Source: an uncultured Acidimicrobiaceae bacterium (GTDB lineage Bacteria; Actinomycetota; Acidimicrobiia; Acidimicrobiales; Salinilacustritrichaceae). Taken from it: a DNA stretch of 32,000 nt. A program made the translations under genes and the position numbers. The stretch spans positions 22,067-54,066 of the forward strand of contig CAVSXR010000021.1 in assembly GCA_963731885.1 (NCBI GenBank), read 5' to 3'. Shown piece by piece: positions 3,875 through 22,126 of the stretch. Each line of letters opens with the position of its first letter. Position 1 is the stretch's first letter. The notes under the pieces are model-generated. The model ran no database searches and was not told the origin of the DNA. It saw only the letters and a program-made list of their open reading frames with translations.

Positions 3875-4297
3875 TCACTCGAGGTCACCGAGGACTTCGG
3901 CGAGTTCGTGTTCGAAGCCGCGGAGTTCGCGGCGGTGGAGTTCGGAGAGTCGTTCGAGGACGCCGTCCCCCTTGGGGGTGAGGGTGACGAGACGGCGTCG
4001 TGCGTCGGCGGGATCGGCGTGGCTGCTGACGAGGCCGTGGGCTTCGGCGCGGTCGACGAGCTCGACGGTGGAGTGGGTGCGGCGGAGCAGGACTTCGGCG
4101 AGGTCGGAGATCGAGGGTGGGGCTCCGGTGGGCCGGTGCCCGCGGATGGCGAGGAGGAGTTGGTGTTGGGCGGGGGTGAGTCCCTCCGCGCGTGCAGCTT
4201 GTTCGGAGAAGCGGAGGAAGTGCCGGAGGCGGGTGCGGAAGCGGGCGAGGGCCTGGTAGTCCCGATCGGCGAGGGGTCTGTCGTTCGGGTCGGTCAT
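3875..4297 (-). CDS. MarR-family transcriptional regulator
   Basis: 140 aa with LTPAQHQLLLAIRGH...SISDLAEVLLRRTHSTVELVDRAEAHGLVSSHADPADARRRLVTLTPKG, a MarR wHTH with wing. The ATG overlaps the stop of the upstream ClC gene (ATGA). Confidence 0.9.
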   Translation of the reverse strand: MTDPNDRPLADRDYQALARFRTRLRHFLRFSEQAARAEGLTPAQHQLLLAIRGHRPTGAPPSISDLAEVLLRRTHSTVELVDRAEAHGLVSSHADPADARRRLVTLTPKGDGVLERLSELHRRELRGFEHELAEVLGDLE

Positions 4298-5514
4298 GGG
4301 GTGTGGGTCCGTGCTCGTTGGCTGGAGATGAGGTGGATATCGCTGGTGAGGACGACGGCGACGACGGCGGCGAGGGTCGTGGTCGGGAGCAGGTGGAGGC
4401 CGGCCATCTCGGTCACGACGAGCGTGCTGCCGAGGGGGGTCTTGGTGACGCCGGTGTTGGCGGCGACCATGCAGGCGGCCATGAGCATGGTGGCATCGAC
4501 GCCGGGGAGCGCGTGGTGGAGGAGGAGCCCGCCTGCGGCACCGGCGAAGAAGAGCGGGATGATGAATCCACCGCGCCAGCCGGTGGACACGCAGACCGAG
4601 CTGGCGACCAGCTTGCAGACCACCGCGGCGACCAGCGCGGCAACGGTGACCCCGGGCGCGACGAGGTCAGTGATCTGGCCCTCGCCGAAGGTGAGTGCCG
4701 CGACCGACCACAGGCTGAGCAGGCCGACGACGAGGCCGCCGACCGCGGGTCGGAGCAGCGTGGGGAGATGGACGGCGGCCCGCCGGGTGGTGCGGACGAG
4801 GACGGTGAAGGCGATCGCGATGGCTGCGCCGGCGACGGCCGCGAGCGCGGCCCAGCCGAGATCGGTTGCTGATCCGACCGTGGCGTCAGGGAGGTCGAAG
4901 ACCGGTCCGAACCCGGCGCCGTCGAGACCGAGGTACACGACGAAGCCGATCAACGACCCGGCGAGGGCGGGCATCAGCGCCTCGTAGTACTCCAAGCCCC
5001 GCCGGTGAAGGATCTCGAGCGCGAAGATCGCGGACCCGAGGGGCGCGCCGAACAGGACGGTGAACGCGGCCGCCATGCCGGTGATGGTGAGGATGCGTAG
5101 CTGGTGAGCGTCGTGCGGGTCGGTCCGGTTCCCGATGGCCGTGCCGATGGTGCCCGCGGTCTGGACCAACGGCGCTTCCGGACCGAGCGCGCCACCCGCT
5201 GCGATGCCGAGCAGCGACACGGGGATGAGCGACCGCAACGCGCGCACGTCGCTGTGTCCGCCGCTGACGTGGATGTTGTCGACCAACAGTTCGACGTCGC
5301 CGGGATCACCGAGCATTCGGATGAGCCAAGCGATCGCGAATCCGGTGGCCACGAGGGTGGCGATCACGATCCGACTGCTGTGGCCGTCGGGTCCGATCAC
5401 CCGTCCGAGCGTTCGTAGCGCGGCCACGTAGGCGGCGCCGACCGCACCACCGGCGACACCCACGGCAATGACGCGGCCGGTGAGCGGCCGGAATACGGAT
5501 AGCTGGCGCAGCAC
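4294..5514 (-). CDS. ClC-family chloride channel / H+-Cl- antiporter
   Basis: Multi-TM protein with GGALGPEAPLVQ (GxEGP-type), GAPLGSAIFALE and GWRGGFIIPLFFAG (GxFxP-type) selectivity motifs. The start is set at GTG 5514 (VLRQLSVF..). The longer ORF to 5802 runs through a tRNA fragment and is rejected. Confidence 0.85.
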   Translation of the reverse strand: MLRQLSVFRPLTGRVIAVGVAGGAVGAAYVAALRTLGRVIGPDGHSSRIVIATLVATGFAIAWLIRMLGDPGDVELLVDNIHVSGGHSDVRALRSLIPVSLLGIAAGGALGPEAPLVQTAGTIGTAIGNRTDPHDAHQLRILTITGMAAAFTVLFGAPLGSAIFALEILHRRGLEYYEALMPALAGSLIGFVVYLGLDGAGFGPVFDLPDATVGSATDLGWAALAAVAGAAIAIAFTVLVRTTRRAAVHLPTLLRPAVGGLVVGLLSLWSVAALTFGEGQITDLVAPGVTVAALVAAVVCKLVASSVCVSTGWRGGFIIPLFFAGAAGGLLLHHALPGVDATMLMAACMVAANTGVTKTPLGSTLVVTEMAGLHLLPTTTLAAVVAVVLTSDIHLISSQRARTHTP

Positions 5515-5602
5515 GGATATATCGTAGAACGATCTAATCCGCTGACCCGAACCACGTCGACACGAGGACTTGCGGCGTGCGGGGTGTGCGCCTGCACCCC
5601 CA

Positions 5603-5647
5603 AGGTGGCGGGGGAAGGATTTGAACCTCCGACCTTCGGGTGATGAG
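5603..5647 (-). repeat. Decayed copy of the 3' 45 nt of tRNA-fMet (outermost att remnant, chromosomal-side junction)
   Basis: aggtggcgggggaaggatttgaacctccgaccttcgggtgatgag compared with tggtggcggggggaggatttgaacctccgaccttcgggttatgag at 22050-22094 shows 3 mismatches. It is followed by ttcgacg, as is the copy at 13765-13809. Confidence 0.8.
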
Positions 5648-5659
5648 TTCGACGTACCG

Positions 5660-5770
5660 CGGGTCGGCCCACCACCAGCCGAACAGCGCGTTGAGGCCAA
5701 GACCGACGAGGAGGATCGCGGACAGCCAGACGCACAACGTCGTCTCGGGTCGCGTCTGCGGCCACCGCCC
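5660..5770 (-). pseudogene. Short remnant of a cation-efflux (CDF-like) transporter gene at the island edge
   Basis: The minus frame reads ..[28 protein letters not shown] and then runs straight into the att/tRNA fragment. The LxGLxLNAxxGWWWADP pattern resembles the last TM of small actinobacterial 'cation transporter' proteins. There is no start and no complete domain. Confidence 0.35.
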
Positions 5771-5806
5771 GACTCCCGAGCTGCTCGCCCACACGTCGAC
5801 ATTGCA

Positions 5807-6040
5807 TCATCCGTCGGCCTCGCGCACCGATCGATTGAGCGCTTGGATGGCGCTGCCCTCCACCTCCTCCACGCCGGCCACGGCGAATCCGGTGTGGACC
5901 AGGACCCAGTCGCCTTCGCGGACCCGGCCCCCGTCGAGGACGATGGGAGCCAAGGACACGCGCCGGCGGCCGTCGGTCAGGTCGACGATCGCGTCGTCGC
6001 CATCGACGGCGACGACTCGGCCGGCATCGCTCAAGCACAC
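5807..6040 (-). CDS. hypC: HypC/HybG/HupF-family [NiFe]-hydrogenase assembly chaperone
   Basis: 77 aa starting (GTG)[10 protein letters not shown].., with the essential Cys at position 2, and ending ..EGDWVLVHTGFAV.. (HypC signature). The start overlaps the protease stop by 10 nt. Confidence 0.85.
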   Translation of the reverse strand: MCLSDAGRVVAVDGDDAIVDLTDGRRRVSLAPIVLDGGRVREGDWVLVHTGFAVAGVEEVEGSAIQALNRSVREADG

Positions 6041-6540
6041 GGAGAAGACCCCTCGAACAGACCGATCACCAGCACGACCGCGTCGGCGACTGCGGCCTCC
6101 ACCGCCGGGGTGAGCCCCGGACCGGCACCGAAGTCGACGCCCTCGACGCCGACGACCGTGAGCGTGTCCGGGAGCCGTCCCAGGCGCCCGCCGAGCGCGA
6201 TGGCGTCGGCGATTCCCATGGCGTGGCTCGCGCCGGTCCCGGCTGTGGCCGCGCCCGGATCGATCACGCGCACTGTTCCCGGGCGTGCGCCGGTGCGGAC
6301 GGCGTCGACGACGACGACGTGGTCGGCGCGGCCCCACGCATCGAGCAGGCGGGCGGGCTCGCCGTCGAGCAGGATCACGTGCGGTGCATTCTCCGACGAG
6401 CCCGTCGCCGCCTCGACGGCGCGGGCGACGACCCACCCGACGCCGTCGTCACGTCGGAACGAGTTGCCGACCCCGATGACGACGCGAACCGTGGACGCCG
6501 CGGCCGGGTCGGTTCGCCCGGCGTTGCGTCGTGTTGTCAT
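6031..6540 (-). CDS. [NiFe]-hydrogenase maturation endopeptidase (HyaD/HoxW/FrxA family)
   Basis: [18 protein letters not shown] ... LLDG ... VVVVDAV ... GASHAMG motifs. ATG 6540 overlaps the stop of the large-subunit ORF (ATGA). Confidence 0.85.
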
Positions 6541-8639
6541 CGCCGGTCCACGGTGAGGTCGAGGAAGTGCGTGGCACAAGAGATACAGGGGTCGTGGTTG
6601 CGGATGATCGACTCGGCACCGTGGGCGAGGTCGTGGTCGTCGAGATCGAGGTGGTCGGCGACGAATCGGGTGAGGTCGTCCTCGATGGCGGCCTGGTTCT
6701 GGGACGTCGGTGGAACGATCCGGGCATCGAGGATCGTCCCGTCGGCGTCGAGTTCGTAGCGGTGCCACAACGTGCCGCGGGGCGCTTCCGTCCACCCGCA
6801 TCCGACCCCAGCGACCGGCTCGACCGGCACCGCGGGCGCGTCGGGCTCCTCGTAGCGCGCGATGACGGCGAGCGCCTCCTCACACGCGTGCAGTACCTCG
6901 ACCGCACGGACGACGATGCTGCGGTACGGGTTGCGGTTCGAGTCGTCGAGGCCGACACGGACGGCGGCGGACCGGGCTCCTCGGGACAGCTCGCCGGCAT
7001 TGAGCGCGAATCGGGCCAGCGGACCGGTCAGGTGATGGCCGCGTCCGCGCAGGCCGCCGCGGAGCGCCGTCGAACGTTCGACGTGGTCCTCGACGAGTAC
7101 GTCGGCGAAGTCGGACTCGTCGAGGTCGAGGCCGCCCGACGTGACCAGTCGGCCACGGGTGATGGCGTACGCACCGGGATGTCGGAGGGCGGCCAGTTCC
7201 CAGTCGCCATCGAGGTCGGGGAAGTCGAACCCGGCCACCCAGTCGACGACGGCCTCGGCCCGATCGCGTGCGGCTTCGAGCTCGGGTACGAAAGCTCCCA
7301 ACTCACGAGCCTTCGGGGCGCGATGGAACCCGCCGACGCGGATGTTGACGGGATGGATGGCTCGCCCGCCGACGAGCTCGACGAGCGCATTGCCGGTCTT
7401 CTTCAGCGCGAGGCCCCGTTCGACCGCAGGTCGGTGATGCTCGGCCATGGCGATGGCGCTCTCGTAGCCAAGGAAGTCGGGGGCGTGGAGGAGGTGCACG
7501 TGCAGCGAGTGGCTCTCGATCCACTCACCGAAGTACAGCAGCCTGCGCAGATCGGCCAGCGGGCCGTCGACGGTGACACCACACGCAGCCTCGATCGCCG
7601 CACACGCGCTCATCTGGTACGCCACCGGACAGATGCCGCAGATCCGGGCGGTGATGTCGGGCGGTTCGACGTAGGACCGGCCGCGGAGGAAGGCCTCGAA
7701 GAAACGGGGCGGCTCGTAGATGCGGAGTTGGACGTCGTGCAGTTCGCCGTCGCGGATGTCGACGTGCAGCGCCCCCTCCCCCTCGACGCGGGCCAAGGCG
7801 CCGACCGCGAGGGTGCGCGATCCCGTGGCCTTGTGGGTCATCGCCGGCGCTCCCTCGCGTCGTCGAGCCGGTGCGCTCTCCTCGGCGAAGGCGGGTGCGG
7901 CGGCGTTGAAGGTCCGCAGGAGACGCACGATACCGGCGTCGTCCGCTCCGAGCCGGCCGAGTTCGACGGTGAGAGAAGCCGGGTTGGGGTCCTCGGCGGG
8001 CCCGAAACACCCGTAGCACCCACGGTTGTAGCTCGGGCACAGGGCGCCGCAGCCGGCGTGGGTGGCCGGCCCGAGACAGGGCGTGCCGTGAGCGACCATG
8101 ACACACACGTTGCCGGCGAGCTTGCAGTCGACGCAGACGGAGTGGGCCGGCACCTCGGGCCGTCGGCGGGCCAGGAACGCGCTGATCACCTCGACGAGTT
8201 GGCCCTTGTCGATGGGACAGCCGCGGAGCTCGAAATCGACGGGCACGTGGGCGGCGATCGCCGTGGAATCGGCGAGGGTCGAGATGTACTCCGGGTGGGC
8301 GTAGACGATGCTGAGGTACTCGTCGATGTCGGCGGCGTTGCGGAGGGCCTGGATGCCCCCGGCCGTGGCGCACGCGCCGATGGTCACCAGCGACCGGGAC
8401 GATGCCCGGACGCGCTGGATGCGCTCGGCATCCTCGGGTGTCGTGATCGACCCCTCGACCAGCGACAGGTCGTAGGGCCCGTCGAGGCTCGCACTCGTGG
8501 CCTCGAGGAAGTACGCGACCTCGACCTGGCCGGCGATGGCGAGCAGATCGTCCTCGCAGTCGAGCAACGTGAGCTGGCAGCCGTCGCACGACGCGAACTT
8601 CCACACCGCGAGCCGGGGCGGGCGACGGTCGGTCACCAC
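6537..8639 (-). CDS. [NiFe]-hydrogenase small (delta, FrhG/HydD-like) and large (alpha) subunits encoded as one continuous 700-codon frame
   Basis: The small-subunit part has [25 protein letters not shown] and [11 protein letters not shown]...[27 protein letters not shown]. The large-subunit part starts at MTHKATG (ATG 7841) and has [17 protein letters not shown] (L1) and DPCISCATH (L2). The ORF track shows no stop between the two parts. The start is GTG 8639/8636, overlapping the gamma stop (GTGA). Confidence 0.8.
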
Positions 8640-9475
8640 CGGCGCACCTCCAACAGCGGCTCGGCGACCGGCCAGGGGAGCACCGGTCCATCGGTGCACA
8701 CGAACATCGGTCCGAGCTGGCAGCGCCCGCAGTGGCCGATGGCGCAGTGCATGTTGCGCTCGAGCGACACCGTCACGTGTTGAGGCGCAACGCCTCGGTC
8801 GATCAGGGCCCGGGCGACGACGCGCATCATCACCTCGGGCCCGCACAACAGCGCCCTCGTGCTGGCGGGATCGTCGACCAGGCGAACCGTCGGCGCGGTG
8901 ACCGTACCGACCTCGCCACGCCAGTCGTGGCTCGGCGCGTCCACGGTGACGGCGACGGTGGCACCGGCGTCGGTCCAGTCGTCGATCTCGTCGCGGTACA
9001 GCAGGCCGTCGGGCCGGCGGGCGCCGATGACGACCGACAATCGTCGGGCCGTTCGTGCGGGTGCCAAGGCCCGACGGACGACGGGGCGGAGGGGTGCGAG
9101 CCCGATACCTCCGGCGACCACCAGGAGATCCTCGGGCTCCTCGATCGGCCAGCCCGTGCCGAACGGCCCTCGGACGCCGACCTGATCACCGACATCGAGA
9201 CGGCAGAGCTCTCGCGTGACGGCACCGACACCGCTGATCGTGTGTCGCAGGACGCCGTCGTCGGACGGGCAGCCGCTGACCGAGATCGGCGCCTCGCCGA
9301 CCCCGAAGGCGTACAGCATCGTGAACTGGCCGGGTTCGATCGAGGCCACCGCGCCGACGGGCTCGACGTCGATCGTGACGACATCGTCGGTCTCCCGCTC
9401 GACGCGCACGACGCGATGGCTCACCGGCGCCATCGGGTGCGTCGCGGGCGGGCTCGCCACGTCGGGTTCAGCCAC
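8633..9475 (-). CDS. Hydrogenase gamma subunit (HydG/AsrB/PyrK-like FAD/NAD(P)-binding oxidoreductase with C-terminal 2Fe-2S)
   Basis: [34 protein letters not shown] (FAD beta-barrel), [16 protein letters not shown] (NAD(P) Rossmann), LLCGPEVMM, and [12 protein letters not shown]...C (2Fe-2S). The start is GTG 9475 (8-nt overlap with the upstream stop) or ATG 9433. Confidence 0.8.
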
Positions 9476-9929
9476 GGCCGTAGAGGTCGAGCAGTCGGAG
9501 GTGGGTGGCGTCGATCTCGGCGACCAGTACCGACGCCACGCGCTGCATGATCCGGTAGCCGAACGCCGGATCGGCGTCGGCCTTGTCACGAAAGCAGCCG
9601 GTCTCGATGGTCAGCAACCGGGAGCGCCCGACCGCACGCACGTCGCTGGTCCAGCGGTACGGCGGGAAGATCCACGCCCAGCCGACCGCGCCGCCGGGAC
9701 CGACGGTGTCGACGACCAGCGACTGGCCGGCCGAGTGCAGTTCGATGGCGAGCAGGCCGTGGCGGACCAGGAAGAACCGGTCGGCGGCGTCGCCTTCGCG
9801 GGCCAGCACCTCGCCCGGCCGCACGACCTGGTTGTGGCCGCATCCGGACATGAGGTCGAGATCCGTGGCGTCGAGCGTGGAGAACACGTCGTGGGCTTCC
9901 AGCAGCTCGCGGATCGGCTTGAGTCGCAT
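9468..9929 (-). CDS. Stand-alone cyclic-nucleotide-binding (CAP/Crp effector-type) domain protein, 153 aa
   Basis: LLEAHDVFSTLDATDLDLMSGCGHNQVVRPGEVLAREGDAADRFFLVRHGLLAIEL....VVDTVGPGGAVGWAWI is the cNMP-binding beta-barrel pattern. There is no HTH or other output domain. ATG 9929 overlaps the beta-subunit stop (ATGA). Confidence 0.75.
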   Translation of the reverse strand: MRLKPIRELLEAHDVFSTLDATDLDLMSGCGHNQVVRPGEVLAREGDAADRFFLVRHGLLAIELHSAGQSLVVDTVGPGGAVGWAWIFPPYRWTSDVRAVGRSRLLTIETGCFRDKADADPAFGYRIMQRVASVLVAEIDATHLRLLDLYGRG

Positions 9930-11074
9930 CAGGTCGGCTCCGTCCCGGCGATGGCGCGTACCTCGGCGGTGAGGTCGATGCGGGCCGGGCACCAGGTCAC
10001 GCAGCGCCCGCAGCCCACACAGCCCGACATGTCGAACTGATCCCACCACGTCGAGAGCTTGTGGGTGAGCCACTGGCGGTAGCGGGACCTCGTATCGGCC
10101 CGAACCGGGCCGACCCCGTGCAGCCACGAGTGGTCCTGAGAGAAGCACGAATCCCATCGTCGGGCCCGCTCGGCCTGTGTACCGTCGAGCGACGTGTGGT
10201 CCTCGACGGCCGAGCAGAAGCACGTCGGGCACACCAAGGTGCAGTTCGAACACGACAGGCACCGGGTGGCCACGTCGTCCCACTGGGGGTGGTCGAGGTT
10301 GGCGGCGAGAACGTGGCGCGCCGCCACGGGATCGAGCATGCGGGTCATGCGGCCCCGAGCTCGTTCGGTCACCGCGCGGGCTGCGGCGATGTCGCCATCC
10401 CGGGCCGGTTCGATGGGGAGCTCGGCGAGCACCTCGGCACCGAGCGGCGTGCCCACCTCGAGGAGGAGCCGATGGCGTTCCTCGTCGAGCAGTTCCGTGA
10501 TCGCGAGGTCGAACCCGGCCCCGGCATGGGCGCCGACATCGGGGCCGGTGCCCATCGAGGAGCAGAAGCAGGTCGCCGCAGGATCGGAGCAGTTGACGGC
10601 GACGACGAAGTTGTCCTGGCGTCGTGCCTTGTAGCCGGGGTCGGGCACCGTGCCGTCGCGTAGCACGCGGTCCTGAACGGCGATGGCGGCCAGGTCGCAT
10701 CCCCGGAGACCGATGAAGGCGCGGCGGAGGCCCTCGGGTTCGCTGGGCGTGACCGTCATCGCGGTGTCGTCGCGTGTCGCTCGAGTGATCGTGACCAGCG
10801 TCTCGCGGCGGGGCGTGAGGAAGCCACGGGCCGAGTCAGGCCCGACGGCGTAGCCGAACAGCGCATCGTCATCGCGTCGTTCGAGCCGGTACTCGCCCGC
10901 CTCCTGGATGTCGGTCCAGCCGATGGGCAGGTCGCGGCGGCCGGCGATCTCGTCGAGAACGATCGCACCGTCACGGATGGTGGGGCCCACGACGACATAG
11001 CCGCGCGACGTCAGTGACGCGATCAGCGCGTCGATCGAGACGGGGTCGATGAGGGCCCGATCGACGGTGGTCAC
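9929..11074 (-). CDS. Hydrogenase beta subunit (HydB/AsrA-like 4Fe-4S protein)
   Basis: CLSCSNCTLVCPTCFC and CVGCGRCVTWCP ferredoxin-type motifs, plus NCSDPAATCFCSSMG. The start is GTG 11074, preceded by GGAGG at 6 nt and overlapping the upstream stop (GTGA). The Arg-rich 278-aa N-terminal extension of the track ORF is rejected. Confidence 0.8.
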   Translation of the reverse strand: MTTVDRALIDPVSIDALIASLTSRGYVVVGPTIRDGAIVLDEIAGRRDLPIGWTDIQEAGEYRLERRDDDALFGYAVGPDSARGFLTPRRETLVTITRATRDDTAMTVTPSEPEGLRRAFIGLRGCDLAAIAVQDRVLRDGTVPDPGYKARRQDNFVVAVNCSDPAATCFCSSMGTGPDVGAHAGAGFDLAITELLDEERHRLLLEVGTPLGAEVLAELPIEPARDGDIAAARAVTERARGRMTRMLDPVAARHVLAANLDHPQWDDVATRCLSCSNCTLVCPTCFCSAVEDHTSLDGTQAERARRWDSCFSQDHSWLHGVGPVRADTRSRYRQWLTHKLSTWWDQFDMSGCVGCGRCVTWCPARIDLTAEVRAIAGTEPT

Positions 11075-11901
11075 GATGCGCCTCCCTGCGCGACCCCGGG
11101 TTCGAGCTGGTCGGCGAGCGGTGTGCGTCGCTCGGCCGGTCGGCCGTCGGCGGCCAGGCTCCGGTTGGCGAGGGCGAGCTGGGCGTCGGTCTCGCTCCGG
11201 AGCCGACGGGCCTGCGTCAGGGACAGGCGTTGACACGCCCAGCCCCAGTGGCAGGCCACCAGGTCGCCGGGCTCGAGCCCAGCGACCAGGGAGTAGCCGT
11301 CGGTCGCCGTCGTCACGGTCTCCGACAGCGGCGGTCCGAGACCGAGTCGCCGCCCGTCCCAGGTCAGGCGGCGGCTCTCGACGACGGCGCCGGTCACGGC
11401 CACGTCGACGACGCGTCCCCAGCGGACGCGACACCGGTCGAGGACGTCGAGGGCGACCGCGGTCGACCGGCTCCGCAGGAGGCCGACCCATGGGTAGACG
11501 CTGAACACGTGGAAGTTGTGGTGGGGACGCGGCGCGGCCTCGACGACACCGGCCAGGCCCGACCACCGCGTGCCGGTGCGGGGCCGGAAGCGCTCGTCGA
11601 GCGAGTCGCCGAGTTGGCGCGGACCGACGCTGGCGAGCAGCGGGCTCCCGATCCAGTAGGCCTCGACCACCCGGGCGTCGAGCGGGTCGGCGATCCCGTT
11701 TGCGCCGGCGATCACCTCCAGGTACGGCCACGCCCCCTCGAATCCTCGGGCCAGGGCGCGCAGGCCGCCGTCGTCGGGGCCGCCGGCGACGGCGCGCTCG
11801 AGCAGTTCCCGGTGCGCGCCCGGCCCGCAGTACCCGAGCTCGTTGGGCGGGTACGCGAATCGAGCGAACGCCACGCCCCCGGCGCCGGTGAGGTCGGTCA
11901 T
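11071..11901 (-). CDS. Conserved-looking protein of unknown function, translationally coupled within the hydrogenase operon
   Basis: 276 aa starting MTDLTGAGGVAFARFAYPPNELGYCGP, with ...HHNFHVFSVYPW... and a C-terminus of ..LEPGDLVACHWGWACQRL. Both the start and the stop overlap neighbouring genes (ATGA / GTGA). I recognise no confident family. Confidence 0.6.
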   Translation of the reverse strand: MTDLTGAGGVAFARFAYPPNELGYCGPGAHRELLERAVAGGPDDGGLRALARGFEGAWPYLEVIAGANGIADPLDARVVEAYWIGSPLLASVGPRQLGDSLDERFRPRTGTRWSGLAGVVEAAPRPHHNFHVFSVYPWVGLLRSRSTAVALDVLDRCRVRWGRVVDVAVTGAVVESRRLTWDGRRLGLGPPLSETVTTATDGYSLVAGLEPGDLVACHWGWACQRLSLTQARRLRSETDAQLALANRSLAADGRPAERRTPLADQLEPGVAQGGAS

Positions 11902-12989: not shown

Positions 12990-13699
12990 GAGGGCTCGAA
13001 GCAGCGGCACCTCCAGAAGACCGAAAGCATCTCGCTCACCGAGGACGAGTTGCGCCAGCTGATGCGGACTACGGCCGGACACCGATTGTTCCCGCTGTAC
13101 TGGCCGACGGCCATGACCGGGATGCGCCCGCAACGAGGTGCTCGGGCTGAAGTGGCCCGACGTCGACTTCCGGAAGAAGCAGCTGCATCTCAACCGTGGG
13201 CTGGTCGCCGTCGGCTACGAAGTCCACGAGACACGAGGCAAGACCAAGACGGCCCGGCGCTGCATCGACCTCGACGACACCACCCTCACCGTCCTCGAAG
13301 GATGGCGGGCGCTCCAAGCCGCCGAGTTCGCCGCCGTCGGCATCGACAACGACGAGGAGTGGATGTTCACCCACGGCGACGGCAACCCCATCCACCCCCA
13401 CGCGCTGTACCAGACCTTCAAGCGGATCGTCGCCAACGCCGACGTGCCGACGCTCCGGTTCCGGGACCTGCGGCACACCCACGGGAGCCTGCTCATCAAG
13501 GACGGCGTGCCGGTCAAGGTCGTGTCAGAGCGGCTCGGCCACGCCCACATTCGCCCACACCATCCAGACCTACCAGCACCTCCTGCCCGGCATGGGAGCG
13601 GACGCCGCCTCACGCTTCGAACGCCTCACCGGGTCCGTTCCCACGGACGATTCCGACTCGGAGGAACACCGTGGGAACAACCGGAGGAACACCGCCTGA
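12990..13699 (+). pseudogene. Tyrosine integrase pseudogene (5'-truncated, two +1 frameshifts), paralogue of the integrase at 20795-21985
   Basis: Three successive frames together align to residues ~170-396 of the intact integrase: KQRHLQK..LRQL..AGHRLFPL..AMTGMR | LGLKWPDVDF..LNRGLVAVGYEVHETRGKTKTARR..HDLRHTHGSLLIKDG..ERLGHA | ..QTYQHLLPGM. Single-base insertions lie near 13125 and 13555. The N-terminal ~170 codons are absent. Confidence 0.85.
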
Positions 13700-13714
13700 C
13701 CCCGGAGGAACACC
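13659..13714 (+). repeat. Three direct copies of cggaggaacacc (candidate integrase arm-type sites)
   Basis: Exact 12-mers lie at 13659-13670, 13682-13693 and 13703-13714, with 23 and 21 nt start-to-start spacing. The third lies beyond the integrase-frame stop (13697-13699). A degenerate triplet with 23/20-nt spacing lies at the same place next to the intact integrase (about 21945-21999). Confidence 0.4.
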
Positions 13715-13725
13715 TCAGCAACGAC

Positions 13726-13754
13726 GAAGGCCCAGGTCGCTGACCTGGGCCTTC
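13726..13754. terminator. Perfect 13-bp-stem hairpin between the integrase remnant and the tRNA fragment
   Basis: gaaggcccaggtc-gct-gacctgggccttc, identical to 22011-22039. Confidence 0.5.
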
Positions 13755-20627: not shown

Positions 20628-20794
20628 CGCTGCCGATGGACGCGAGCTTCCCCCGAGTCCGTGTCGCTGCGAGCGCCCGCTCCAACCTGGGCTTTCGCGT
20701 CTCTGCATCCGAGCAGGCAGCCGCGTAAGGAGTCGTCTACCGATTGTTCCCCCGGGTTCCGAACGTCGGGACCCGAACTCGGAGGAGGAACAAC

Positions 20795-21985
20795 ATGGGA
20801 TACCTACGTCGTCGCGGCGACCGCTACTACGCCGTCATCTACGAAGGACTCGACCCCGTCACCGGTAAGGAGATCCGACGCTGGCATCCCGCCGGCACCG
20901 ACCTGGCCGAGGCCGAACGTCTCGTCGCGAAGCTCTCTGCCGCCGAAGCAACCAAGGTCGGTGCGGTGCGGTCACTGACCTTCGGCGCGTACCTGACCAG
21001 CCAGTGGCTACCAGCCAAGAAGCTGCACCTCGCGACCAGCACGTACCGGGGCTACGAACGCAACACGCAGCTCCACGTCCTGCCGACCCTCGGACAGGTG
21101 CCGATCCGGCGGGTGCGCTACCAGCAGATCGAATCGCTCTACGACGCCCTCCTCCACCCCAAGACAGGACGAGGGCTATCACCCAAGACCGTGTACGAGA
21201 TCCACCTCATCATCAGGGGTGCACTCGCCGACGCCTGCCGGCGCGGTCTGGTCACCCGCAACGTTGCAGTGCTGGCTCGGGCTCCCAAGCAACGGCACCT
21301 CCAGAAGATCGAAGGCGCCTCATTGACCGATGAAGAGCTACGCCAGCTCCTGCGCACGGCCGCTGGGCATCGACTGTTCCCGCTGTTCTGGCTCACCGCG
21401 ATGACCGGGATGCGCCGCAACGAGGTGATCGGCCTCAAGTGGCCCGACATCGACGTCAAGAAGCGGAGGCTCCACCTCAACCGAGGGCTCGTCGCGGTCG
21501 GCTACGAGGTCCATGAGACCCGTGGCAAGACCAAGACCGCACGTCGGTCGATCGATCTCGACGACACCACGCTCACCCTGCTCGATGGATGGCGTGCTCA
21601 CCAGGCCGGCGAGTTCGCTGCAGTCGGCATCGAGAATCCCGAGCAGTGGGTCTTCACCACAGGCGACGGCGGACCCGTCCACCCACACGCCGTCTACGAA
21701 GCGTTTCGGCGGATCGTTGCGAACGCCGGCGTCCCCACCATCAGGTTCCATGACTTGCGGCACACGCATGGGAGCTTGCTGATCCAGGACGGGATCCACG
21801 TGAAGGTGGTCAGCGAACGCCTCGGCCACGCCAACATCGCCTTCACCATGCAGACCTACCAGCACCTGCTTCCAGGCATGCAGGAAGACGCAGCCGCGTC
21901 GGCCGAACGGCTCGCCAAGCCCGTTCCCCCGACCGAATCCGCCTCGGGGGAACGCCGGGGGAAGCCTCGGAGGAAGAGCGCCTGA
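20795..21985 (+). CDS. int: Tyrosine recombinase / site-specific integrase (intact)
   Basis: GGAGGAGG precedes ATG 20795. The N-terminus is MGYLRRRGDRYYAVIYEG.. (arm-binding type). The catalytic set is present: TGMRRNE (R), HDLRHTH (HxxR), LGHANI (H), QTYQHL (Y). Confidence 0.9.
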   Translation: MGYLRRRGDRYYAVIYEGLDPVTGKEIRRWHPAGTDLAEAERLVAKLSAAEATKVGAVRSLTFGAYLTSQWLPAKKLHLATSTYRGYERNTQLHVLPTLGQVPIRRVRYQQIESLYDALLHPKTGRGLSPKTVYEIHLIIRGALADACRRGLVTRNVAVLARAPKQRHLQKIEGASLTDEELRQLLRTAAGHRLFPLFWLTAMTGMRRNEVIGLKWPDIDVKKRRLHLNRGLVAVGYEVHETRGKTKTARRSIDLDDTTLTLLDGWRAHQAGEFAAVGIENPEQWVFTTGDGGPVHPHAVYEAFRRIVANAGVPTIRFHDLRHTHGSLLIQDGIHVKVVSERLGHANIAFTMQTYQHLLPGMQEDAAASAERLAKPVPPTESASGERRGKPRRKSA

Positions 21986-22010
21986 ACCGGGGGAGCGCCC
22001 TGTGAACGAC

Positions 22011-22039
22011 GAAGGCCCAGGTCGCTGACCTGGGCCTTC
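22011..22039. terminator. Perfect 13-bp-stem hairpin between integrase and tRNA (bidirectional terminator candidate)
   Basis: gaaggcccaggtc-gct-gacctgggccttc lies 10 nt downstream of the tRNA CCA end and 25 nt after the integrase stop. There is no U-tract, consistent with the I-shaped terminators common in high-GC Actinobacteria. Confidence 0.5.
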
Positions 22040-22049
22040 ACTCACAAGT

Positions 22050-22126
<77 letters not shown>

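Follow-up and report, generated by a model that had tools for sequence, protein, structure and literature searches.

A stretch of 32,000 nucleotides (nt) from an uncultured Acidimicrobiaceae bacterium (contig CAVSXR010000021.1, positions 22,067 to 54,066), referred to here as the window, contains on its minus strand a group 3b [NiFe]-hydrogenase locus in which the small and large subunits are encoded by one uninterrupted open reading frame (ORF). Comparison with related loci supports an origin of this fusion by a single additional base close to where the small-subunit gene ends. We favor the reading that the base is a genuine and very recent mutation, with a probability of about 0.5. A sequencing or assembly error, in which case the organism would possess ordinary separate, ATGA-coupled small- and large-subunit genes, is a serious contender that falls somewhat short of an even chance, while all other explanations taken together account for a small residue. 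The sequence leaves two readings, a mutation of very recent date or an error of assembly, and gives no sign of an established new enzyme design.

The fused reading frame and the extra base

The ORF listing as computed contains a single frame at 6537–8846 on the minus strand (769 amino acids, aa). The sensible start within it is the GTG at 8636: it forms a GTGA with the TGA that ends the upstream gamma-subunit gene, and GGAGGTG and an 8-nt spacer stand before it. The ORF listing, the translation and the Pfam assignments agree that the small-subunit frame continues without a stop into the large subunit, as had been claimed in an earlier note on this DNA. Pfam recognizes in the single ORF the domains Oxidored_q6, which represents the small subunit, and NiFeSe_Hases, which represents the large subunit, and the resulting 699-aa chain joins a complete small subunit to a complete large subunit through a linker of 11 codons. 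The features of the fused gene and its junction are the following.

6537–8636, minus strand: fusion ORF with Oxidored_q6 and NiFeSe_Hases domains, 699 aa plus stop (ORF listing, Pfam)
7872–8636, minus strand: small-subunit part (HyhS, delta), colinear with relatives, 255 aa ending in ...AFAEESA (tblastn with the small subunit of locus L001)
7870–7872, minus strand: site of one extra base, GCGC[A]CCGG, where an inserted A or a duplicated C both fit (MAFFT DNA alignment with loci L001 and L003)
7842–7871, minus strand: frameshifted tail, now linker, 10 residues; the old frame is read over 7870–7838
7850–7856, minus strand: Shine-Dalgarno-like GAGGGAG, 8 nt before the internal ATG, with the spacer CGCCGGCG at 7849–7842
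7838–7841, minus strand: ATGA, the large-subunit start over the former small-subunit stop (ATG 7841–7839, TGA 7840–7838)
6537–7841, minus strand: large-subunit part (HyhL, alpha), 434 aa, which aligns along its whole length with the separate large subunit of L001 at 87% identity

The position of the extra base follows from several comparisons with relatives that keep the two genes apart. When the small subunit of L001 is used as the tblastn query, its residues 1–256 align to 8639–7872 with 87% identity, and the alignment ends exactly at 7872. In the DNA alignment the window has one additional nucleotide right after GAGAGCGC, reading GCGCACCGG where L001 reads GCGC-CCGA; the same alignment also contains a separate and unrelated in-frame difference of 12 nt. 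If one base is skipped at 7870–7872, the frame yields a small-subunit tail of the family type and a stop on the ATGA. This tail carries the motif E-[SA]-x-R-[LIMV], found in 14 of the 16 closest stand-alone small subunits (for example ESARMEDER, ESARLEEGETR and ESARLDTAPDR, and also ESARIEDER followed by a stop), which is present in the old frame of the window (ESARLDD...) and absent from the fusion frame (ESAPA...). The suggestion in the earlier note that a 1-nt indel had occurred in the last ~20 codons of the small-subunit gene is thus borne out, and the alignment to small-subunit C-termini of relatives that it proposed places the base 11 codons before the ATG at 7841.

The nearest relatives preserve the coupled arrangement from which the fusion is derived. 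In L001 and L002 (small subunit 87–88% and large subunit 87% identical to the window) the genes are separate, at 348–1136 and 1133–2437, and overlap by 4 nt as ATGA. In L003 and L004 (81% and 79%, respectively) they are again separate, at 4222–5004 and 5001–6302, with a 4-nt overlap TTGA. The small subunits end in AFADESARIEDER and a stop in L001 and L002, and in AFADEAARRKGGPG and a stop in L003 and L004.

The corresponding signals are still in place in the window. As the earlier note had it, GAGGGAG lies 8 nt upstream of the ATG at 7841 (at 7856–7850), and the ORF at 7838–8104 on the minus strand, in the neighboring (+1) frame, terminates on the TGA of the ATGA. A 5-nt Shine-Dalgarno core occurs by chance 5–16 nt upstream of ~5% of all positions in the window, and likewise of all ATGs, and such a motif alone is weak evidence because it is expected in 1 of 20 cases. 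Relatives have a ribosome-binding site (RBS) at the equivalent place before the large-subunit start, GAGGA in L001 and GGGAGG in L003. The earlier note called the RBS at the junction a fossil; the RBS is there, but it is the conserved RBS of the large subunit and nothing suggests that it is dead. With regard to the start/stop overlap, both the ATGA and the RBS are present, and the small-subunit frame as given misses the TGA and reads it after skipping one base. The lack of stop codons in the 11 linker codons is unremarkable because of the GC content of 69%.

On the same strand, the junction between the gamma and small-subunit genes (8633–8660) has nearly the same design as the small–large junction (7838–7860). 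The former reads GGAGGTG-CGCCGGTG-GTGACC and the latter GAGGGAG-CGCCGGCG-ATGACC; in both, a GC-rich spacer of 8 nt separates the RBS from the start/stop overlap, and ACC comes next.

These observations indicate an ancestor with a translationally coupled small/large gene pair, in which the RBS of the large subunit lay inside the small-subunit tail and the two genes shared the ATGA start/stop overlap. The additional base at 7870–7872 would then have moved the small-subunit frame onto the large-subunit frame, so that the old TGA is bypassed. The fused ORF, the place of the additional base, the coupled arrangement of the ancestor and the unadapted codons of the linker are shown by the sequence and its alignments; the reality of the base, tolerance of the fusion and initiation at the internal ATG are inferred.

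Age and reality of the extra base

The linker retains the composition of the old reading frame. Of its 11 codons (7874–7842), 6 have G or C at the third position (GC3) in the fusion frame, compared to 9 of 10 in the old frame and a GC3 of 0.87 gene-wide (binomial P ~ 0.006). The linker is therefore un-adapted to its new frame, which means that the change is very recent or not biological.

None of the 71 GTDB species-representative loci with a readable small–large junction is fused, and at least 18 have a 4-nt overlap; similarly, none of 70 JGI metagenome loci with a readable junction is fused, and 21 have a 4-nt overlap. Overall, the fusion occurs in 0 of 141 related loci, and the 4-nt overlap is found in L001–L004 and in at least 39 other relatives. 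The earlier note had considered the case that the same linker would be common among orthologues, which is not seen, and had called a fusion of these subunits mechanistically unusual. That description holds for the clade of the window but not in general, as a family of single-chain enzymes exists in Patescibacteria (see below).

A search of the databases for other small–large fusions, which the earlier note had recommended, led to the Patescibacteria family and to a second fusion made by frameshift, P0002/P0509. All of the best 120 small-subunit homologues are stand-alone proteins of 253–306 aa. Both Pfam domains are present in 17 of the best 120 matches to the whole fusion, and most of these two-domain matches are full of out-of-frame stretches (alignment A1). 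Judged by this alignment, entries with multiple frameshifts are artefacts or wrecks and not architectures, and we rejected most database "fusions" as precedents because A1 shows multiple frameshifts in them. P0007 belongs to a contig with a split large subunit and a split glyceraldehyde-3-phosphate dehydrogenase (GAPDH) gene, lesions that are given for locus L086.

Most two-domain proteins with small and large parts from high-GC metagenome contigs have arisen by several frameshifts (P0004, P0005, P0008, P0020, P0023, P0031, P0080, and locus L086), and such entries inflate the apparent count of fusion architectures in clustered protein databases. Three other entries differ in kind. P0354 (696 aa) is a low-GC small–large chain without the C-terminal DPCxxC motif. 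P0279 (978 aa) has the small and large parts after an N-terminal region of 280 aa. P0030 (1044 aa, named hydA and attributed to the dinoflagellate Symbiodinium microadriaticum) joins cyclic nucleotide (cNMP)-binding, gamma, small and large parts in one gene model and may represent bacterial DNA or merged gene models.

The second frameshift-made fusion occurs in a lineage known from soil metagenomes (L085, 441–2549, and L171, 2586–4694), where a 702-aa small–large ORF lies in a full-length group 3b operon. Two samples share the P0509 allele without any difference, and a third contains a gene with 99.9% identity to it; this fusion is real because the allele occurs in three assemblies, from at least two projects. 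Its insertion is a T inside the ATGA itself, GAATG[T]ACC, and no in-frame internal start is left. The beta-subunit gene of L171 (128–1294) has an in-frame TAA, giving RSRYR*W against RSRYRQW in the window, and a neighboring MYG1-family gene (L171, 5146–6090) also contains an in-frame stop, which suggests that the P0002/P0509 operon is decaying, or that there is something odd with its stop codons.

Several of these results would be expected if the extra base were introduced by sequencing or assembly. With one base deleted, the tail regains the family motif and the frame ends precisely at the ATGA. Third codon positions in the linker still carry the GC pattern of the former frame, only one copy of the allele is known, none of the 141 related loci is fused, and many of the database fusions are themselves frameshift artefacts of high-GC contigs, as at L086. 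The caveat of the earlier note that an indel of this origin would give the same picture stands, with a single copy of the allele. However, there is no further frameshift in the operon, where six other genes each align to relatives by tblastn as a single colinear high-scoring segment pair (HSP), and within the 32-kb window no truncated Pfam domain demands one. The frameshift scan of the window combined tblastn colinearity against relatives with Pfam domain completeness on 30 ORFs, as GC3 phase tracking proved too noisy. Domains are essentially complete (UPF0182 2–770 of 770, CLC 2–344 of 346, DUF6390 4–242 of 244, Aminotran_4 2–221 of 223), and the sole clear fragment in this check is an integrase remnant at the boundary of a putative genomic island. 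The absence of other frameshifts from the operon and the window indicates a low per-base indel error rate; unlike L086, the contig is not error-ridden. Moreover, the context GCACCGG is not a long homopolymer, and P0509 demonstrates that real frameshift-made fusions of the same gene pair exist.

A number of points weigh against a genuine mutation. The allele is known from one copy, the database entry P0001, which forms a 90% cluster with one member and derives from one contig of 205,080 nt (NCBI/ENA). The look-up of the exact fusion protein gave no record, and the junction DNA, in either allele, had 0 matches in the scan of metagenome contigs. The closest large subunit among 5.8 billion proteins is only 87% identical, and so provides no independent confirmation. 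An assembly error, too, would leave precisely this picture of a unique and unameliorated single-base change. The lack of fusions among the related loci is compatible with selection against them, and the only other confirmed frameshift-made fusion, P0002/P0509, belongs to an operon whose beta gene carries a nonsense codon, which hints at decay over innovation.

The fusion could alternatively be an established, selected single-chain group 3b architecture with an evolved linker. Single-chain small–large hydrogenases are conserved in the Patescibacteria family, and the operon and maturation genes of the window are intact. Nevertheless, the nearest lineages (79–88% identity) are unfused, as are the other related loci, and the linker is simply the former tail translated with a shift of one base, with un-adapted GC3 and with RBS and ATGA intact; the window protein moreover lacks both hallmarks of the Patescibacteria enzymes, the truncated small subunit and the absence of a C-terminal extension. 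We consider this explanation very improbable, and an ancient selected fusion in the clade of the window is rejected on the grounds that the relatives are unfused and the linker is unameliorated. Recoding is a further alternative: given a real base, a change of frame by ribosomes within the tail would still let a separate small subunit end at the ATGA, and the enzyme would be unchanged, but nothing specific speaks for it. In GCACCGGCTCGACGACGCGAGGGAG neither a slippery heptamer nor a stimulatory element can be seen and relatives need no such device, which makes recoding the least probable of the explanations considered here. Read-through of a stop codon, including selenocysteine insertion, was rejected as the fused frame contains no stop to read through.

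If the base is an error, the result has practical value in that two-domain hydrogenase entries from high-GC contigs would mostly have to be regarded as products of frameshifts, not as architectures.

The fused chain and the hydrogenase operon

If the base is genuine, initiation at the GTG at 8636 would run into the large subunit and produce a ~75-kDa small–linker–large chain, with no free small subunit. As the internal RBS and ATG are intact, initiation there would probably yield some large subunit in free form as well, while the termination–reinitiation coupling at the ATGA would be lost. Only the last 10 residues of the small subunit are altered, and beyond R-[LIMV] the tails of relatives differ in both length and sequence. 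In an AlphaFold2 model based on a 62-row alignment (predicted template modeling score 0.73), the large-subunit part has a predicted local distance difference test score (pLDDT) above 90, and residues 261–287 have a pLDDT below 50 and are predicted to be disordered. The tether would be a flexible stretch of ~25 residues. Its small-subunit part is poor, which counts against a working fusion, and the model is too weak to judge the docking of the tethered subunits.

In the maturation of [NiFe]-hydrogenases, HypC–E deliver the Fe(CN)2CO group and HypA and HypB deliver nickel, and the small subunit binds only after the C-terminus of the large subunit has been cleaved. Tethering of the small subunit could disturb this order of events, although a flexible linker need not prevent maturation. 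The variable tail, the predicted disorder at 261–287 and the conserved single-chain enzymes of Patescibacteria are pointers to tolerance. A real base together with a 699-aa chain that functions as an enzyme is a tentative proposition, to which we assign well under an even chance; a real base combined with an impaired enzyme appears less probable again.

A genuine base in a working enzyme would amount to a natural experiment on the rule that the small subunit docks only after metal loading and processing of the large subunit. It would be a full-length group 3b enzyme with a complete small subunit tethered N-terminally to a large subunit that still needs metal insertion by Hyp proteins and C-terminal cleavage, implying that maturation tolerates the tether, and it would offer a ready-made design for engineered single-chain hydrogenases. 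The window would also have captured a subunit fusion at its first step, after a single mutation and while the former RBS and ATGA are still in place, and would illustrate how trivially ATGA-coupled pairs fuse, as any +1 insertion in a stop-free tail suffices. Even so, the protein would be a one-mutation-old variant of a well-known enzyme and not an established architecture.

Judged by gene order and similarity, the locus is a standard operon for a group 3b (sulfhydrogenase or Hyh-type) [NiFe]-hydrogenase of a high-GC, probably Acidimicrobiia-like actinobacterium, and the enzyme is predicted to have NAD(P)-linked, reversible H2 activity. The genes on the minus strand follow the order DUF6390 gene, beta, cNMP-binding protein, gamma, small–large, HycI-type protease, HypC. 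Besides the fused gene, the operon comprises the following genes.

9929–11107 (upper end approximate), minus strand: beta subunit gene, Fer4_22 4Fe-4S protein (Pfam; single HSP with the L003 beta subunit, 11044–9941)
9468–9929, minus strand: cNMP-binding protein gene (single HSP with the L003 cNMP_binding protein, 9929–9477)
8633–9460 (upper end approximate), minus strand: gamma subunit gene, NAD_binding_1 and DHODB_Fe-S_bind (Pfam; single HSP with the L003 gamma subunit, 9445–8636)
6031–6498 (upper end approximate), minus strand: HycI-type maturation endopeptidase gene (Pfam HycI; single HSP with the L001 HycI, 6486–6034)
5807–6040, minus strand: hypC chaperone gene (Pfam HupF_HypC; 82% identity to the L001 HypC, 6040–5822)

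The translated large subunit has both Ni-Fe ligand motifs, one of the RxCGxC type in the N-terminal region and DPCISCATH in the C-terminal region. The His of the latter is followed by a 9-aa C-terminal extension, FLDLTVDRR, and a HycI-family gene, whose product would cleave this extension, lies directly downstream. The Oxidored_q6 match covers positions 1–127 of the 128 in the profile, and the small part is 81–88% identical to stand-alone small subunits of 260–262 aa. The best matches in PDB are sulfhydrogenase 1 alpha (9nez_D, E = 4e-59; 9e15_B) and delta (9nez_A, 9e15_A); 9e1j and the alpha subunit of the cytosolic NiFe-hydrogenase of T. kodakarensis (5yxy) are also among the top matches, and Mvh, Frh and Hox rank lower. 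Homologues are annotated at source as sulfhydrogenase alpha or delta, and the named relatives belong to Acidimicrobiia, Ilumatobacteraceae and other Actinomycetota.

The position of the cNMP-binding gene between beta and gamma is conserved in L003, L086 and L171, which suggests that its product is a cyclic-nucleotide-linked component or regulator of actinobacterial group 3b operons. The DUF6390 gene lies directly upstream of beta on the same strand, at ~11071–11895 (Pfam 4–242 of 244, E = 3e-91), and a gene for an EamA transporter is found further upstream.

Elsewhere in the window, a tRNA-Met gene (22050–22126, minus strand) adjoins a full tyrosine integrase gene (20729–21982, plus strand). 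The segment 12999–13816, which includes an integrase fragment ORF at 13117–13740, is a degenerate direct copy (74–91% identity) of 21287–22101, which comprises the 3' part of the integrase gene and part of the tRNA. The ~8.3 kb between the two copies looks like an island integrated at tRNA-Met, and its genes include HTH-nucleotidyltransferase, HTH_31, TPR and DUF3024.

Comparison with single-chain and four-subunit hydrogenases

A small–large fusion is not unprecedented. To judge from sequence comparisons, it exists as a conserved natural design in a stripped-down enzyme of the Patescibacteria or Candidate Phyla Radiation (CPR), a family whose member P0333 is among the clean low-GC proteins with both domains matched in a search against representatives. 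At least 45 of the top 120 matches of P0333 are proteins of 553–609 aa with Oxidored_q6 and NiFeSe_Hases domains, 36–83% identical to P0333, and the fusion is conserved across 35–83% identity in the family. The members (P0333, P0339, P0391–P0411 including P0395, P0434, P0436 and others, as well as loci L168–L170 with the gene at 6001–7746) come from NCBI, JGI, ENA and Logan, and the organism names include Candidatus Nealsonbacteria, Falkowbacteria and Pacebacteria. P0395 is found in identical form on at least 24 contigs, as a lone gene among glycolysis genes with hypC nearby and without beta, gamma or protease genes. An alignment of 15 members (A5) shows a small part of ~165 aa with four invariant Cys residues (the proximal cluster only), followed by a variable linker; all 15 end at the His of DPC(I/M/V)TC(A/S)VH, without a C-terminal extension.

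The CPR "hyd2" hydrogenases, which are related to group 3b, have been described as possessing separate, truncated small subunits with a mean length of 164 aa, and the words "fused" and "fusion" are absent from that report (Jaffe et al. 2020, PMC7304191). The single-chain family is probably a subset of the hyd2 clade of that work. The searchable full-text literature, subscription journals being outside its scope, yielded no description of a natural small–large fusion, including the one in Patescibacteria, and this family of single-chain minimal [NiFe]-hydrogenases may matter more than the fusion in the window.

The window protein shares with the Patescibacteria family the domain order, Oxidored_q6 followed by NiFeSe_Hases, and the proximity of hypC, but the two are only ~32% identical. 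The window protein also differs in its full-length small part (255 aa plus tail), in its 9-aa C-terminal extension and the accompanying protease gene, and in the presence of beta and gamma genes. Furthermore, the fusion is common to diverged relatives in Patescibacteria, whereas in the window it is a singleton and the closest lineages are unfused. The family nonetheless indicates that a conserved and presumably working enzyme can have its small subunit tethered N-terminally. A looser parallel is provided by a system that joins homologous modules in the same order, a small-subunit-like part first and a large-subunit-like part last, with a NuoC domain between them; it has no Ni-Fe site, needs no Hyp maturation and serves as a lead only.

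The P0002/P0509 fusion belongs to the same class of mechanism as the one in the window, a +1 insertion at an ATGA-coupled junction, and the two proteins are 58% identical. They differ in that the P0509 insertion disrupts the ATGA, whereas the window keeps its internal ATG in frame, and the colinear HSPs show no lesions of the P0509 type in beta or the other operon genes of the window.

Apart from the fusion, the locus resembles the known group 3b enzymes, the alpha-beta-gamma-delta heterotetramers represented by sulfhydrogenase I of Pyrococcus and Thermococcus and by the actinobacterial Hyh enzymes. The same beta and gamma genes are located upstream and HycI and HypC downstream, and the window protein is 79–88% identical to ordinary actinobacterial members of the group. 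Delta and alpha are separate chains or genes in all solved structures and in the 141 related loci, whereas in the window one extra base makes them a single ORF. The group 3b trait of small and large subunits as separate polypeptides is thus lacking in the window as given, and it returns when one base at 7870–7872 is removed.

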